A stretch of DNA of 44,592 bases from Gammaproteobacteria bacterium (lineage in GTDB: Bacteria > Pseudomonadota > Gammaproteobacteria > SZUA-152): positions 1 through 44,592 of the forward strand of contig DATCIR010000050.1 in NCBI GenBank assembly GCA_036507695.1, in the 5' to 3' direction. Below are positions 9,414 through 25,036 of this stretch, one piece after another. The notes under the pieces are model-generated. The model was not told the origin of the DNA. It did not search any database and worked only from the letters and a program-made list of their open reading frames with translations. Positions within the stretch are counted from its first letter, which is position 1. Each line of letters opens with the position of its first letter. Made by a program: the position numbers and the translations under genes.

Positions 9414-10721
9414 CTATTTGCTCGCTACAAAGTGTTGAACACGATAACGGTCTTGCCAGCCATCCGGTGCTGATGCGATAACCAGAAACGAATGTATGCC
9501 GGGTGGCAAGCCGTCCTTGATATGTAATTGCAGATCGATACGGCCCACGTCATTAAATCGCGCCTGTGCCAGGTCAAACTGATAGAGGGATGAATCCAGT
9601 CCGTCGACGGAAATATCCACTACCGCGGAATCATAGATTTTATTGGACACGGCAACCCGGTAGTCGGAGATTTGCGGGCCATGCATGGTATCAGCCCGAT
9701 AGACCGCCAGATGAAAGCGTTCATAACTGACCAGCCCCCACACGAACATGGAAATGCCCAGTAGTGCAAACGGCATGGTCCAATGAACCCGGGACGATAA
9801 TGATGATAACCGTGTTTTCAACAATGCAAAGCGGGTTGCATCCCGATCACCGATTTTGAACCTCAGCAGGCCGGGCTGACCCTGCTTCGCCTGCAGGCTA
9901 TTACAGGCGGTAATGCATTCCCCGCAATTAATGCAAGTATCATAGATATCGGTGCTTTTGGGATCGAGCTCCAGAAAACACTGGGTCGCGCAATAGTTGC
10001 ATTTTTCACACAAAGCGGAGCGTGAGCTATCATAGGCGATATGCAAGGTATGTTGGGTTTTAAAGCCATGCTGCCAGACTTTATAGATGCACATGAACCG
10101 GCACCAGAAATGCCGTATAAACGCGATATCCAGAAATATCACCGCAACAAAAACAAAGTAGATAAAATGCAACGACCCGGCCAAACGCGCGTCCTGCTGA
10201 AACGCAATAAAGGACCAAACAACCGCCGGAGGATAAAAGTAGAACAATGGGATCAGCGCAAACAACATGGCTGCCGCCAAAAAACTGATACCGAGAATTG
10301 CCCAGTTGGACCACTTGTTTTTATTCGCTCCCACTTTCATTTTCTCGCCATCAAGCGAGAGTTCGGCGCGTTTGCCTAATAATTTTTGCGTAAGATAGTT
10401 AGCCCACTCCGATAAACTGTTTTGCGGACAAGACCAGCCGCAAAACGCAGTCCCGACCGTGGAATAGAGCAACACCGCGCCGCTGGCCAGTACCAGCCAA
10501 AAACCAAATACCAGAAAAAAATCGGACCACCAAATCTGGCGATCGAGGACCACGAACGCTCCCGCCATTGGATCAATACGAAACAAGCCGGCTGCGGGAA
10601 TCAATATGGCAACGGCGATAGTAAACCACTGCAAAGCACGGCGTTGCCAGTGCAAACGCATACTCGCTTTGGGTGTTTCCGCCGTGATGGGAATCCCGCT
10701 GAGTGAATTATTACTTTGCAT
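9414..10721 (-). CDS. ccoG: CcoG/FixG-like membrane-bound polyferredoxin
   Basis: 435 aa. CGWSCPQN, CRFMCIYK, CEKCNYCATQC and CINCGECITAC clusters. Multiple TM helices and a C-terminal beta-rich (FixG_C-like) domain. Confidence 0.8.
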   Translation of the reverse strand: MQSNNSLSGIPITAETPKASMRLHWQRRALQWFTIAVAILIPAAGLFRIDPMAGAFVVLDRQIWWSDFFLVFGFWLVLASGAVLLYSTVGTAFCGWSCPQNSLSEWANYLTQKLLGKRAELSLDGEKMKVGANKNKWSNWAILGISFLAAAMLFALIPLFYFYPPAVVWSFIAFQQDARLAGSLHFIYFVFVAVIFLDIAFIRHFWCRFMCIYKVWQHGFKTQHTLHIAYDSSRSALCEKCNYCATQCFLELDPKSTDIYDTCINCGECITACNSLQAKQGQPGLLRFKIGDRDATRFALLKTRLSSLSSRVHWTMPFALLGISMFVWGLVSYERFHLAVYRADTMHGPQISDYRVAVSNKIYDSAVVDISVDGLDSSLYQFDLAQARFNDVGRIDLQLHIKDGLPPGIHSFLVIASAPDGWQDRYRVQHFVASK

Positions 10722-15250: not shown

Positions 15251-15730
15251 CTACTCACTTAATGACGACTCTTTAGGTTTTTCGTCGGGTTTAACGTAGA
15301 GTTTTTCCGCTTCTTCCGGCGTGGTACGGCCGTAAATTCGCTTTATCATGATCTCGCCAAAAACGCCGCCAATAGCCGCGCACTCAACCGCCAGAATTAC
15401 AAAAAAAATCCACCAGCCAAAAGGCATTAACGTCATGCCGTCCGGCAGGTTCGTGAGATATTCACTCTCCATATAGGCGATCGTCCTGACGATGACCGGG
15501 GGAAAATAACACAACCATTTTCCGCCCAAGCCAAATACCGACGCGGTAGCCAGTCCCACGAAGATGGGAATGATGAAAACCAGAACGGCCCACTTTACAT
15601 TAAATATCGCCAGAGGATCGTTAATAGGAACCAATTCCAAGCGCACACCGAGCAACCGGTCGCCCGCATAGTTAACCAGACAGCCCACCATGATCGCAAA
15701 CGTTCCGGATACAAACCGCGCTTTTGTCAT
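15251..15730 (-). CDS. hypothetical 4-TM membrane protein
   Basis: 159 aa. 4-nt ATGA-type overlap with the upstream cytochrome gene. No family recognised. Confidence 0.55.
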   Translation of the reverse strand: MTKARFVSGTFAIMVGCLVNYAGDRLLGVRLELVPINDPLAIFNVKWAVLVFIIPIFVGLATASVFGLGGKWLCYFPPVIVRTIAYMESEYLTNLPDGMTLMPFGWWIFFVILAVECAAIGGVFGEIMIKRIYGRTTPEEAEKLYVKPDEKPKESSLSE

Positions 15731-16215
15731 GGGTTATACTCTTTACCGGTTAATTTCTCATATTCGAGTTTCTTGGTTTCTTCCAGATACCACTCTTCAA
15801 CCTTCAGACTCGCCATATATTCTGCCAGGATTATCCGATCTTGTTCCGGCGCATGCGCCAGTGATGGCATTTGATATTCTTTTTTCAGTCGCGTAGGCAC
15901 AATGTTCTGAGGATTATCCGCGGAAAAATACCGTAAAAACCATTCCTCACCTTTTAAAGAACCCAAACCATCCAGGGCGGGCGCGGGAACGGATTGCATG
16001 ATGCTGCGTTTGGTCCAAAGACTATGGCAGGCGTGACAATTATATTTTTCAAAAAGTGCACGCGCTTGTTTAGACAATTCCAGAGATGCTGTGCTGTAGT
16101 AAGGGATACCTTTATCTTCTTCTGCCTGGCTGGAGAGGTTATAAGCCTTGAGCGCGGCGGTGATTGCCACAACAACACCGATAACCGCCAAAATGCCCAG
16201 TTCACCTTTTTTCAT
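15727..16215 (-). CDS. membrane-anchored monoheme cytochrome c (CcoO-related heme domain)
   Basis: N-terminal TM helix. CHACH motif followed by LDGLGS...W; paralogous to the 23386-23964 product. Confidence 0.8.
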   Translation of the reverse strand: MKKGELGILAVIGVVVAITAALKAYNLSSQAEEDKGIPYYSTASLELSKQARALFEKYNCHACHSLWTKRSIMQSVPAPALDGLGSLKGEEWFLRYFSADNPQNIVPTRLKKEYQMPSLAHAPEQDRIILAEYMASLKVEEWYLEETKKLEYEKLTGKEYNP

Positions 16216-16899: not shown

Positions 16900-16908
16900 A
16901 TTATATCA
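16900..16908 (-). promoter_or_regulatory. possible extended -10 promoter (TGATATAAT on minus strand)
   Basis: The minus strand reads TTGTTGATATAATATAC about 48 nt upstream of the ATG at 16852, just downstream of the terminator at 16950-16981. Confidence 0.3.
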
Positions 16909-16949
16909 ACAAGTTCACTACGGATAAAAATTGAAATCCTGTAGTAAGC

Positions 16950-16981
16950 AAAAAGCCATGCCACCTCGGGAGTGGCATGGC
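16950..16981 (-). terminator. rho-independent terminator (minus strand)
   Basis: GCCATGCCAC / 7-nt loop / GTGGCATGGC. On the minus strand it is followed by TTTTTGC. It separates the ccoN-ccoO unit from the downstream accessory operon. Confidence 0.6.
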
Positions 16982-17029
16982 TTCGACATTCATAACTTAA
17001 CTTACTTGGAGTAGCTGTCGATCGCCTCT

Positions 17030-17137
17030 TTACCCTTGTCGTATTTATCCACAAAGAAGCTGTAGATAAACGGAACGGCGTATACCATGAGTACCCAGAT
17101 TAGCATTGCAAACGGGCCATTATCTAAATCAAGCATT
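17030..17137 (-). CDS. candidate 35-aa single-TM micropeptide
   Basis: Hand-translated MLDLDNGPFAMLIWVLMVYAVPFIYSFFVDKYGQG. GGGAGAG lies 6 nt upstream of the ATG. It starts 18 nt after the FixP_N-like gene ends and precedes the terminator. Confidence 0.45.
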
Positions 17138-17155: not shown

Positions 17156-17782
17156 TCAGTGGTGCTTCTTGTGATCCGGTTTATAGCTGTAATTTGGCAA
17201 GCGTTTTACAGCAATAATGACCGAAACGCAAAACACAATGATAAAGATGATATCGATCGTGTAGCCTTTATCCCACGTAGGTTGTATGCGAATGGTGGAG
17301 CCATCTTCACGCTTCTCACCTTCAAAATTAGCCAGTACCAGCTCGTTACCAACGACGGTGTACTCGTCCATGCGCGCCCCTTTGCGCTGCAGCTCGATGA
17401 TCTGGCCTTTGATCATTCGCAAGTCGTCCATCGTTAAGGGATGCCTTTCCTGCAGGGCCGTCCATTTTGAGCCGCCCGCGCGAACGGTATCTTCGATCCA
17501 TTTCATTGCGTCTTGGTCATTCTTGCCCTGGATCGCAGGATCGTCCATCAATTTCACATATTCTTCGTAAATCGCCGCCGTTGGGCGCTGACCCCACAGT
17601 GGCGCGGTAATCAAGAATGCTGTAATAATTGTCAGGAGCAGCAAACCTACTACCGGCGGCGGCAAACGATTGTTATTTTCAGTAATCCCACCCAGACTCT
17701 CGCCTTCCCAAAGCTTGACCGCACCCTGGTTTTGGTCATCGGTGGATAATGTATAAAGTGGATTATCAAATCTCCAAGCCAT
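17156..17782 (-). CDS. heme-less FixP(CcoP) N-terminal-domain protein
   Basis: GGITENNNRLPPPVVGLLLLTIITAFLITAPLW resembles DGIEEYDNPLPRWWF...LYP of CcoP. 208 aa, 2 TM, no CxxCH anywhere. Occupies the ccoP position after ccoO. Confidence 0.6.
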   Translation of the reverse strand: MAWRFDNPLYTLSTDDQNQGAVKLWEGESLGGITENNNRLPPPVVGLLLLTIITAFLITAPLWGQRPTAAIYEEYVKLMDDPAIQGKNDQDAMKWIEDTVRAGGSKWTALQERHPLTMDDLRMIKGQIIELQRKGARMDEYTVVGNELVLANFEGEKREDGSTIRIQPTWDKGYTIDIIFIIVFCVSVIIAVKRLPNYSYKPDHKKHH

Positions 17783-17797
17783 GTGCTACATCCCCTA

Positions 17798-18748
17798 TTA
17801 TTTTAGATTCAATACAAAGTCGATTAATGCATGCGCTTCACTGTCGGTAGCCGGCACCGGCACTTCAGGCGGATAAACGCGCGCATTAGCGACATATTGA
17901 TTATATTCAGTACGCCATTGGTCAAAGTTAATCGCATTGCCATTGGCGTCTTTCTCACCCCATAAATAATCATAACGGGGCATAATGGAGTGTGGCTGCA
18001 CTAACCGAGGATTGAAAAAGTGCATTATCATCCACTCGCGAGATGAGTTGCGTGAACCCACATGGGTTAAATCCGGAGCCTTGCGGTCTGAACCAAACGC
18101 GGTGGGACTTTCACCATTAAAGTCACCTAACATCGGCGGCGCGCCGAAATATTGCCAGTCCTGGGTTTGTTCCGGCAACAAGGTATGACACCACCAGCAG
18201 CCCTCACGGATAAACATAATCTTGCCTTTACCGATCTGGAAAGTGTTTTCGTTCGAGGCCACTTTCATGACGGCGTCCGGTGTCCAGCCACGAGTTGCGG
18301 TTACATTCTCGATGTATGGAATAGTCTCGCCGCCCTCGTCAATCTCGCGAACCACGAATACCGCGCCTTTCGTGTCATCCGCCTGCTCAATCTTGCCTAA
18401 GGTCAGGCTTTTCGCTGTTGGCTTGTCACCGAGAATGATCGGATGGCGGATACCATTCGGAAACGGTACCCCAGCGTGATACACATAAGCACGGGTAACC
18501 TCAATGCCCGCGCCGGTTTTTGGGTCTTTGGTGATTCCCACCGTAAGTGGTTTTGCCTTACCCTGTAAAAACGGGTCTTCGTAGCTGAATCCACCGACGC
18601 GTCCAAACCCCAACTGACGGTGTAATCCGGTTTCAGTCACGGATACATTACGCATGTCCGAAGCCGGCATGTACAGCGTTATGAACATCGAAGTACCAAA
18701 GGCGATCCCGAACATGCGGGCTCCAATTGTATATTCTCTAAATGCCAT
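17798..18748 (-). CDS. ccoO: CcoO-like monoheme subunit with about 150-aa insertion
   Basis: N-terminal TM helix. IREGCWWCH heme motif. FGSDRKAPDLTHVGSR, WMIMHFFNPR and SIMPRYDYLW match the CcoO blocks. About 150 extra residues sit between the anchor and the heme domain. Confidence 0.85.
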   Translation of the reverse strand: MAFREYTIGARMFGIAFGTSMFITLYMPASDMRNVSVTETGLHRQLGFGRVGGFSYEDPFLQGKAKPLTVGITKDPKTGAGIEVTRAYVYHAGVPFPNGIRHPIILGDKPTAKSLTLGKIEQADDTKGAVFVVREIDEGGETIPYIENVTATRGWTPDAVMKVASNENTFQIGKGKIMFIREGCWWCHTLLPEQTQDWQYFGAPPMLGDFNGESPTAFGSDRKAPDLTHVGSRNSSREWMIMHFFNPRLVQPHSIMPRYDYLWGEKDANGNAINFDQWRTEYNQYVANARVYPPEVPVPATDSEAHALIDFVLNLK

Positions 18749-18779: not shown

Positions 18780-20186
18780 TCAACGTTCGTAGGCCAATTC
18801 ATGCGGTAAACGTCCGGCAGGGATCAACGTACCCTGACGCATTGTCTTCCACATGTTGAACAGCCATACACAGTTACCCAGGAATACCATGGTGCCGCCA
18901 ACCCAACGCGCAATCATGTACGGATGCTCGGCGATAACGACATCAATGTACGGCACTTCGTAGATTTTACCGGCGCCTTGGATCAATCCGGCGATGGTCA
19001 TGGAAATCCAGTAGGTGGTAAAACCAACCAGCAGCATCCAGAAATGGAAATTCGCCAGCGCCAGTGAATACAGTTTGCGCCTCAACAAGGTTTGCAATCC
19101 GTAGTAAACCGCGGCCGCTTCCAGGAAGGTCGAGAATCCAAGCAAAGCCAGATGGGCATGGGCCACAATCCAGCCAGTACCATGAATGTACCAGTTAATC
19201 GCGCGGGTTTGCTGGAAACCGCCTTGCATGTTTAAAGGAATAGCCATCAACACACCGGTTATGGTGAATTTGATTTCCACGTTCTCAACAAACATTTTCC
19301 ATTTGCCGGACATCGTCAGCAGCAGGTTGGATACGAAGGCGATCGCGGGTACCAGTATCAACACGCCCTCTACTGACGCGAAAGATTTCAACCATTCCGG
19401 CAGTGGCGCTGACATCAGATGATGGGCAGCGGGTGTTGAGTAAAACACCACAACCGACCAGAAATGCAAATGACCAATTCGGTGCGAATAGAGCGGATTG
19501 CCCGTTACTTTGGGTACGATGTAATACGAGATTGCAGCGGCAACCGGGGTAATCCACAAGCCCAGTACGTTGTGTGCAAACCACCAGGTCAGGTAGGCCT
19601 CGGTCAAACCGGTTAACTGGAAGAACTCCGGTGAGTTACCGACGGTGAACACAACAATAACCATGAATGTCGCTGCGCCAAAGAACCAGTTGGTGGTGTA
19701 AATACCCTGGGTGCGGCGGGTTTTTATGGTCATCACGACATTCAAGCACAGGGGGGTCAAAATACCGAAAATAATCGCCAGGTCGATCGGCCAGATCATG
19801 TCTGAGTATTCACGGCCGGATGACATGCCAAACCACAGCAGTGTCAATCCCAGGCCGAGACCCAGGTTCCAGATAAAGCAGTTCCAAATGCCCAGCTTTT
19901 CAGACCAGAGCCTGGTATTTCCCAATGCCGGCGTGATATACATCATCGCCATCGCAAACGCCATGGAAATCCAGCCCAGGATTACCGCCAGTACGTGAAC
20001 CTGGCGCATATGGCCGAACGATAGCATTTCAATTCCGGTGACAAAATCAGGAAACGCGAGCTTCGCCGCGTTGAATGAACCCAGACCGGTACCCACAATA
20101 AACCACAGAATGGACGAAAAACCGAAAAATATCGCCGCCGAACCTGGCGGGATATCTTCGTTTTTAGCAAATAAATATTTAATCAT
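18780..20186 (-). CDS. ccoN: C-family (cbb3-type) heme-copper oxidase subunit I, divergent
   Basis: 468 aa, about 12 TM. FGHMRQVH (helix II His), WWFAHNVLGLW (CuB His), FYSTPAAHH (Tyr six residues before HH, as in cbb3) and VAHAHLALLG (helix X HxH). Confidence 0.9.
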   Translation of the reverse strand: MIKYLFAKNEDIPPGSAAIFFGFSSILWFIVGTGLGSFNAAKLAFPDFVTGIEMLSFGHMRQVHVLAVILGWISMAFAMAMMYITPALGNTRLWSEKLGIWNCFIWNLGLGLGLTLLWFGMSSGREYSDMIWPIDLAIIFGILTPLCLNVVMTIKTRRTQGIYTTNWFFGAATFMVIVVFTVGNSPEFFQLTGLTEAYLTWWFAHNVLGLWITPVAAAISYYIVPKVTGNPLYSHRIGHLHFWSVVVFYSTPAAHHLMSAPLPEWLKSFASVEGVLILVPAIAFVSNLLLTMSGKWKMFVENVEIKFTITGVLMAIPLNMQGGFQQTRAINWYIHGTGWIVAHAHLALLGFSTFLEAAAVYYGLQTLLRRKLYSLALANFHFWMLLVGFTTYWISMTIAGLIQGAGKIYEVPYIDVVIAEHPYMIARWVGGTMVFLGNCVWLFNMWKTMRQGTLIPAGRLPHELAYER

Positions 20187-20240: not shown

Positions 20241-20345
20241 TTAGGATTGGTTTTTCAGGCTGTCACGAGGCATCAACAGATACCATCCAAACCACATACT
20301 CGAAAAAGCCAGCGCGATACACATAACGGTTGCGAACATTGACAT
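20241..20345 (-). CDS. candidate 34-aa single-TM micropeptide
   Basis: Hand-translated MSMFATVMCIALAFSSMWFGWYLLMPRDSLKNQS. AAAGAGG lies upstream of the ATG. Immediately upstream of ccoN. Confidence 0.4.
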   Translation of the reverse strand: MSMFATVMCIALAFSSMWFGWYLLMPRDSLKNQS

Positions 20346-24274: not shown

Positions 24275-25036
24275 TTATTTTTGTTCCGGAATGCGGTTGT
24301 TACCGATTGTCGTCATTTCGGCTGAAGTCAGAAATGTCGCCAGGTTGTGTATATCGTCATCCGTAAGATTCTTGGCGACTGCCTGCATCTGCGCCATGGG
24401 ATCATTAGCCCGGGAACCGTCACGCCATTTCTTCAACTGATTAACAAGGTACACGTATTTTTGACTGGCCAGGCGGGGATACACCGGAAACACACCGCGC
24501 GTGTTATAACCGTGACAGGAATGACATGCAGGAATACCCCGCTCGACGGAACCAAACTGCGCCAGATTCTTGCCCATGTAACGAATACCCACCGGCACCG
24601 AACCCAATTCCTTCACCGCCGCCATATCTGAACCTGCATTGGGGCCGCCAAGACTAGCCGCATACGCCGCTACGTCTTTGCGATCCTGCGGGGTCAGGCC
24701 TTTCGCATTGTTATTCATGATAAACATGGTGGTATCCTGGCGTTTATCGGTCGCAAAATCTTCCAATTGCTTAATCATGAAAACCACACCCTGTCCCGCC
24801 AGCCGCGGCGTACCCATCGCATCATCACCCAATCCTTCATTACCATGACAGGTAGTGCAGGCCGGGACATCACCTTTACCTTCATTAAATATTTTCTTGC
24901 CGTTTTCCAAATTACCAAAATCACTGTAGGAAACGGTAGCACTTGCAAAGCTGCCGGACGCTGACACCATTGCCGTCACCGCAAGGATTGCTGTTACTAT
25001 CGCTGTTATTTTTGTTGAACGCCGCATTGGAAACAC
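24275..25036 (-). CDS. periplasmic diheme cytochrome c (c4-like)
   Basis: Signal peptide. Two CxxCH motifs (CTTCHG and CHSCHG), each followed by a Met-containing region. 253 aa. Confidence 0.85.
   Translation of the reverse strand: MFPMRRSTKITAIVTAILAVTAMVSASGSFASATVSYSDFGNLENGKKIFNEGKGDVPACTTCHGNEGLGDDAMGTPRLAGQGVVFMIKQLEDFATDKRQDTTMFIMNNNAKGLTPQDRKDVAAYAASLGGPNAGSDMAAVKELGSVPVGIRYMGKNLAQFGSVERGIPACHSCHGYNTRGVFPVYPRLASQKYVYLVNQLKKWRDGSRANDPMAQMQAVAKNLTDDDIHNLATFLTSAEMTTIGNNRIPEQK

Follow-up and report, generated by a model that had tools for sequence, protein, structure and literature searches.

The cbb3 oxidases are high-affinity terminal oxidases of microaerophiles and, to our knowledge, everything that is understood of their structure and mechanism derives from the CcoNOP(Q) form. 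The locus described here departs from that form. It lies in a stretch of 44,592 nucleotides (nt), referred to below as the window, which is the contig DATCIR010000050.1 (positions 1 to 44,592 of the forward strand) of assembly GCA_036507695.1, from a gammaproteobacterium of the SZUA-152 lineage. On the minus strand, the genes of a CcoN-like catalytic subunit I (468 amino acids (aa); 18780..20186), a CcoO-like monoheme cytochrome c subunit (316 aa; 17798..18748), and a 208-aa protein, p208 (17156..17782), follow each other closely. We consider it probable that they encode the enzyme proper of a separate clade of heme-copper oxygen reductases in the C-family (cbb3-type), in which p208 is a heme-free stand-in for CcoP.

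Canonical CcoNO(Q)P enzymes (P. stutzeri 3MK7/5DJQ; 8SMR, 9G6B, 6XKW, and 9G83) share several features with the variant. The metal ligands of CcoN and its helix-VII Tyr are the same, CcoO has an N-terminal anchor, one CxxCH motif, and a Met ligand, and a third membrane subunit aligns with the N-terminal motif, transmembrane (TM) helix, linker, and Glu49 equivalent of CcoP. Small single-TM peptides flank the genes, as in canonical operons with CcoQ and CcoM. Unlike its canonical counterparts, the variant CcoO contains a 143-aa orphan domain and has a C-terminal stretch of 50 residues that misses the FixO profile, while the third subunit lacks heme domains and has a helical periplasmic domain of 108 aa and a second TM helix instead. 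All three proteins score below the equivalog-type cut-offs of NCBIfam and Pfam, except for partial FixO and COX1 domain matches.

The closest described relative is “Complex IV (2)” or “cbb3-2” of Candidatus Tenderia electrophaga, which has the same gene order and nearly the same protein lengths (PMC5371394; bioRxiv 10.1101/2022.05.06.490989). Its genes are Tel_00440 (468 aa), Tel_00445 (316 aa), and Tel_00450 (207 aa, hypothetical), the last being the p208 homolog. The flanks are shared as well, with a diheme Cyc1, a trio of monoheme cytochrome, truncated CcoN, and thioredoxin genes, a further monoheme cytochrome, an FGE-like “Ser/Thr kinase”, and CcoG; the genome is a separate one, and CcoO identity is 66-67%. 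Mean log2 RNA-seq values are 13.7 for CcoN (Tel_00440), 12.8 for CcoO (Tel_00445), and 12.0 for Tel_00450, and fall to 7.3-9.7 for the following genes, Tel_00455-00480 (PMC5371394 supplement), with the accessory genes at 8.6-9.7. In the preprint on the Tenderiales (10.1101/2022.05.06.490989), which draws this region and terms it “a sort of alternative complex IV”, the p208 homolog (ALP51731.1) has no annotation. The gene cluster is already in print; the literature searched, the Tenderia papers included, contained no text on the CcoO insert or on the resemblance of p208 to the CcoP N-terminus, and relative to that literature the subunit architecture is new.

The CcoN-like protein matches PF00115 over residues 17-433 (E=3e-75), and its matches in the PDB at E<=1e-10 are all cbb3 CcoN chains (best 3mk7_A, 8e-61), with no NorB chain among them. 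On TIGR00780, the ccoN equivalog, it scores 219 bits, which is under the 583-bit cut-off, compared with 676 bits for the canonical CcoN encoded in the same genome, to which it is 30% identical. Across 73 family members, no variation occurs at the equivalents of P. stutzeri H207, Y251, H257, H258, H345, and H347; for the heme b ligand H60, the pair alignment with 3mk7_A shows a His, the 73-member tally covering the other ligands. Y249, likewise invariant (n = 73), is the helix-VII active-site Tyr and corresponds to P. stutzeri Y251, the residue cross-linked to one of the CuB histidines. T215, Y223, H243, and N289 (P. stutzeri numbering) are kept too. Because all heme b, heme b3, and CuB ligands are retained together with the cross-linking Tyr, the variant CcoN most likely reduces O2.

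Four replacements are nonetheless invariant in the clade (73/73), namely S240 to G, Y317 to A, E323 to Q, and Y237 to H at P. stutzeri positions, whereas the canonical paralog in the window’s genome has S, Y, and E at positions 240, 317, and 323. We take S240, Y317, and E323 to be residues of the K_C channel or of the heme b3 environment, including His partners, and the replacements suggest a re-wired proton pathway or an altered surrounding of heme b3. The altered subunits and channel residues, and the scores far under the ccoN and ccoO equivalog cut-offs, might instead reflect a physiological reaction other than O2 reduction, such as NO reduction. cNOR has its nearest relatives among the C-family oxidases, for which some NO-reductase activity is known. 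However, all three CuB His and the cross-linking Tyr are invariant, NorB chains are missing from the PDB matches, and subunit II matches FixO, which sets the locus apart from cNOR. The variant is found in microaerophilic oxidisers of iron, sulfur, or electrodes, often as the only C-family oxidase, and ranks among the most expressed genes during O2-respiring growth on a cathode. We regard such a change of reaction as very improbable.

The sequence-only reading that preceded this analysis took the gene at 17798..18748 to encode a CcoO-like protein with an inserted domain of roughly 150 aa, not found in canonical CcoO, between the membrane anchor and the heme domain. Profile searches agree with the assignment. 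Pfam FixO (PF02433) is matched with 65.8 bits (cut-off 29.6), although the match is limited to residues 174-266, equal to profile positions 52-144 of 219 (93 positions), and the ccoO equivalog TIGR00781 gives 66 bits, below its 200-bit cut-off. In phmmer searches against the PDB, residues 174-263/268 pair with residues 55-144/150 of solved CcoO chains (3mk7_B, 9g6b_B, 8smr_F, 6xkw_o, and 9g83_u; 200-242 aa), placing CWWCH (184-188) on the heme motif and M256 (“SIMPRY”) on the axial Met. An AlphaFold2 (AF2) model from a 47-sequence alignment has an N-terminal helix at residues 2-26, where the Kyte-Doolittle score stays below 1.6. The anchor and the heme c domain, which begins at residue 173, are separated by about 143 residues (30-172; 18233..18661, minus strand) rather than the ~20 of canonical CcoO. 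The insert itself thus stands, while its size had been set slightly too high: the net insertion is ~115-125 aa, and the length is closer to 120-145 aa than to 150.

AF2 folds the insert confidently over about residues 60-170 (predicted local distance difference test score (pLDDT) 88-96) into two beta-hairpins (68-74/81-90 and 129-138/141-148) and short helices, and no known fold was matched. The model of the heme domain is poor, which is to be expected where heme is left out. All 47 aligned family members have the insert and none of the solved CcoO structures does. Its occurrence in other protein architectures was considered and rejected: a search of 1.84 billion cluster representatives with the insert alone returned 17 hits, all of them members of this CcoO-like family or fragments of such members except one spurious repeat protein. 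The insert is an orphan domain confined to this CcoO clade, a family of 905 clusters at 90% identity. Mean identity within the family is 53% for the insert and 90% for the heme core, and the insert has 12 invariant positions, one near-invariant His, and no conserved Cys or Met. Given the low identity relative to the heme core and the lack of conserved Cys or Met, this is the conservation pattern of a structural or docking domain and not of a cofactor site, as far as sequences can tell.

The protein encoded next, p208, had been read as keeping the signature of the CcoP N-terminal domain while lacking any heme c site, and both points hold. Its conserved N-terminal segment (W25, E28, G31, G32, I33, E35, N37, L40, and P41) contains the motif G32-I33-x-E35-x-N37-x-x-L40-P41 and leads into TM1 (about 42-62). 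A mostly helical soluble domain of 108 aa (63-170), TM2 (171-193), and a basic tail (KRLP...PDH) follow. FixP_N (PF14715) matches residues 31-56 with E=0.0024 and 17.9 bits, under the 24.9-bit cut-off. Of 44 family members, 37 match FixP_N with E-values of 0.01 or less (best 5e-5), and it is the only family to recur. Six-frame FixP_N scans of 21 genomes returned only two classes of frames, true CcoP (285-336 aa; 49-90 bits) and p208-like ones (209-219 aa; 19-25 bits). By hhalign, the p208 family aligns with 12 canonical CcoP proteins at 85-90% probability (E=2-7e-6, 79 columns), whereas seven other membrane-protein families of the cassette, used as controls, reach at most 0.7% in the N-terminal region. 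Since family hits, genome-wide scans, and hhalign all agree, we consider the likeness to FixP_N probably real.

The aligned region pairs p208 residues 21-103 with CcoP residues 13-114, covering the motif, the TM helix, and the linker helix, and ends just before the first CxxCH of CcoP. Within it, E35 of p208 falls opposite E23 of canonical CcoP, each invariant in its own family; E23 maps to residue 49 of P. stutzeri CcoP (3mk7_C; query residue 12 = residue 39, with a one-residue gap allowed). CcoP Glu49 is reportedly situated at the mouth of the K_C proton channel on the cytoplasmic side.

Beyond the linker, the likeness to CcoP/FixP is lost: none of 76 p208 homologs examined contains CxxCH, no resemblance to cytochrome c is detectable in sequence or fold, Foldseek giving no fold match of any kind, and there is the extra C-terminal TM helix. 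The comparisons support homology of p208 with the CcoP N-terminal module, heme-free in every homolog, and by the same comparisons p208 is not a CcoP. A degenerate cytochrome c origin of the periplasmic domain, in which the invariant H114 falls near the His of the CcoP CxxCH, was rejected because the hhalign alignment stops earlier, a conserved Met ligand is lacking, and the search for a cytochrome c fold found none. The same domain keeps M79 and M93 (each in at least 90% of homologs) together with the invariant H114, a Met/Met/His set that could bind Cu(I). Clustering at 90% identity splits the p208 family into 1626 clusters; every one bears the name “hypothetical protein”, and most have no Pfam annotation.

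The three genes belong to one compact unit. A 34-aa single-TM micropeptide (20241..20345, minus strand) precedes CcoN, the gaps from CcoN to CcoO and from CcoO to p208 are 31 and 15 nt, and a 44-aa single-TM micropeptide (17002..17136, minus strand) starts ~19 nt beyond p208, directly 3' of it. Then comes an intrinsic terminator with a perfect 14-bp GC-rich stem and a U-tract (about 16946..16984, minus strand). It was revealed by RNA folding of region 16900-17010 on the minus strand (-36.6 kcal/mol, z=-5.0; none of 200 shuffles equal), as a simple consensus terminator scan did not list this hairpin. The terminator closes the enzyme transcription unit after the 44-aa peptide, and its placement agrees with the ~10-fold fall in expression after the p208 homolog in Tenderia. 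Both micropeptides, for which Pfam gives no match, are kept at the same position in 72 of 74 loci (tblastn E<1e-3), and they probably serve as small subunits in the manner of CcoQ and CcoM. The 34-aa open reading frame corresponds to “peg.91” in Fig. 2B of bioRxiv 10.1101/2022.05.06.490989.

It could be argued that p208 is a transient assembly or maturation factor comparable to CcoH, CcoS, or the CcoQ-like helpers, and that the mature enzyme is a CcoN-CcoO core. The CcoNO core is the sole part common to all cbb3 clusters according to Ducluzeau 2008, as that work is cited in PMC5520029; secondary citations of the M. ferrooxydans PV-1 proteome (Barco 2015) name only CcoN and CcoO as detected, and M79, M93, and H114 on the periplasmic side of p208 could bind a metal such as Cu(I). 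Against this, p208 lies inside the enzyme unit and before the terminator, whereas the maturation genes (the FixS-like p95, the CcoG-like ferredoxin, and the FGE-like gene) lie after it, and the RNA level of its Tenderia homolog (~12 log2) is near that of CcoO and ~10 times that of the accessory unit. Moreover, p208 retains exactly the CcoP segment that contacts CcoN and has no chaperone domain. Assignments of p208 or the micropeptides to CcoH, CcoQ, or CcoS were rejected for lack of Pfam matches, p208 having none to FixH, FixQ, or FixS. We hold a purely transient role of p208 to be unlikely, and favor its being a lasting, heme-free replacement of CcoP.

Because p208 carries no heme, the variant complex, judged by its sequences, must hold a single c heme, in CcoO, and electrons must enter directly there. 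A candidate donor, a secreted “Cyc1”-like diheme c4-type cytochrome of 253 aa, is encoded upstream (24275..25036, minus strand). It contains the heme motifs CTTCH and CHSCH and two Cytochrome_CBB3/Cytochrom_C stretches, and aligns with both heme domains of CcoP (hhalign 95.9%, E=5e-9). Of the 49 loci giving a match, 45 have the Cyc1-like gene upstream and in the same orientation. The “Cyc1” of Tenderia (Tel_00405) has a log2 expression of ~12.4 (PMC5371394 supplement), and models of iron oxidation propose Cyc1 as the carrier that serves cbb3. Since a CcoP-like diheme c4-type cytochrome is conserved just upstream, the diheme route may survive in an untethered form.

Multi-heme entry could also be kept within the complex, with a canonical CcoP from elsewhere, or the 162-aa membrane-anchored monoheme cytochrome c of the downstream accessory unit (15727..16215, minus strand), as third redox subunit; electron entry would then not differ in principle from that of canonical cbb3. 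The window’s genome does encode a canonical ccoNO(Q)P on another contig (C348), and in P. aeruginosa subunit isoforms of different cco operons form active complexes (PMC10556555). The 162-aa protein is a conserved member of the cassette, its CxxCH being present in all 64 homologs, and has a weak likeness to the second of the two CcoP heme domains (hhalign 64%, E=6.7e-5). However, its gene lies behind the terminator and its Tenderia homolog is expressed ~10-fold below CcoO, and p208 would compete for the CcoP site because it carries the CcoP anchor motif.

The supply of CcoP in trans is disfavored above all by two relatives of the same family as the window’s genome (G008 and G009, each 99% complete). 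Their only CcoN is the variant one (218 bits), and neither a canonical CcoN nor a canonical CcoP was found in them genome-wide. They also carry two truncated CcoN fragments, the variant being the only full C-family oxidase there. As both possess the variant oxidase without a canonical CcoP, it must, on this genomic evidence, be able to function without the diheme subunit. The earlier claim that electrons cannot take the standard diheme route of CcoP is in line with this and with a cassette that has no CcoP. We think it quite improbable that a third redox subunit accounts for the locus.

In the arrangement that we infer, subunit stoichiometry included, p208 would occupy the site that the N-terminal anchor of CcoP has on CcoN and would supply the cytoplasmic loop with the Glu49 equivalent, as a structural and proton-entry remnant of CcoP. 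The 143-aa insert of CcoO and the 108-aa periplasmic domain of p208 have no conserved set of redox ligands; together they would take up most of the space left by the lost CcoP heme domains, presumably as a structural cap or docking surface. The most likely donor would be the co-located, highly expressed periplasmic diheme Cyc1, an untethered version of the CcoP heme domains, which would reduce the heme of CcoO directly; the anchored 162-aa monoheme cytochrome would be the second candidate.

Some observations weigh against this arrangement. The FixP_N match of the window’s p208 is below the Pfam cut-off (17.9 vs 24.9 bits), and an hmmsearch of the PDB with the p208 family profile returned coiled-coil noise and no CcoP chain. 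The seat of p208 on CcoN is argued from its homology to the CcoP anchor. With S240G, Y317A, and E323Q invariant, proton delivery may differ from that of canonical enzymes, and the role of E35 in p208 is accordingly uncertain. The similarity of Cyc1 to the CcoP heme domains is not specific, because c4-type cytochromes in general resemble them. Finally, a canonical CcoP is encoded elsewhere in the window’s genome, and its association in trans is possible there.

A bolder and rather speculative proposal is that the clade represents a separate single-c-heme “c-b-b3” class with a split CcoP. Its anchor and proton-entrance loop would be p208, its diheme part the free Cyc1, its docking or gating platform the two additional domains, and its CcoN would be re-wired through S240G, Y317A, and E323Q. 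If this were true, the split design could let iron- or electrode-oxidising bacteria feed electrons of very high potential into a high-affinity oxidase.

The distribution of the locus was assessed in a collection of one genome for each of 185,579 species, in which the CcoO-like family gave 388 matching stretches, and the 80 best loci were compared. These belong to Gammaproteobacteria (Candidatus Tenderia, Ectothiorhodospiraceae, and Chromatiales), Zetaproteobacteria (Mariprofundaceae), and Betaproteobacteria, and include Candidatus Tenderia metagenome-assembled genomes (MAGs; L045 and L052). A cassette of 12 genes is syntenic in ~60-76 of the 80 loci, across the three proteobacterial classes and in nearly every locus that is long enough. 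Identity across loci ranges from 79 to 97% for CcoN and from 47 to 77% for p208.

The host groups overlap with those of a second cbb3 form in neutrophilic iron oxidisers, described as “proximal” and “distal” subtrees (PMC8788666, PMC7029218, and PMC10734462), as the related loci include Mariprofundaceae, other Zetaproteobacteria, and betaproteobacterial MAGs. The variant clade is probably one of these two subtrees, which are attributed to Ducluzeau et al. 2008; the supplements of PMC8788666 and PMC7029218 contain no locus tags by which clade and subtree could be matched.

Downstream of the terminator, the accessory unit comprises p97, the weakly FixS-like p95, the anchored 162-aa monoheme cytochrome, which may serve in maturation if not in electron entry, and p159, followed by an FGE/SUMF1-domain protein, p85, p138, an 875-aa protein with a spermidine-synthase-like domain, and a CcoG-like polyferredoxin of 435 aa (Fer4_5, Fer4_18; 9414..10721, minus strand). 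The last is the outermost gene of the cassette, as its counterpart is in Tenderia, and was not seen in the related loci because these stop short of that position. CcoG, which it resembles, is a cupric reductase of cbb3 maturation.

The closest named homologs in NCBI records (P0002, P0122, P0124, and P0194) are labelled “Kaarinaea lacus”, which in the NCBI taxonomy is a cyanobacterium of the Nostocales, and three different p208 variants bear this label. The contigs probably derive from proteobacteria of a non-axenic culture or are mis-binned sequence.

The variant is a widespread and conserved oxidase that is little studied and, in Candidatus Tenderia electrophaga, very highly expressed. It is the only C-family oxidase in some genomes, is common to Zetaproteobacteria and other iron and sulfur oxidisers, and ranks among the most highly expressed genes of that electroautotroph. 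If it is a single-heme enzyme with a heme-free CcoP remnant, the anchor and its Glu loop would be the structurally indispensable part of CcoP and the hemes the replaceable one, and more than 1,600 clusters of “hypothetical proteins” would gain an annotation that can guide work on their function. Models of Fe(II) oxidation and of electron uptake from outside the cell would then also have a defined immediate point of electron entry.

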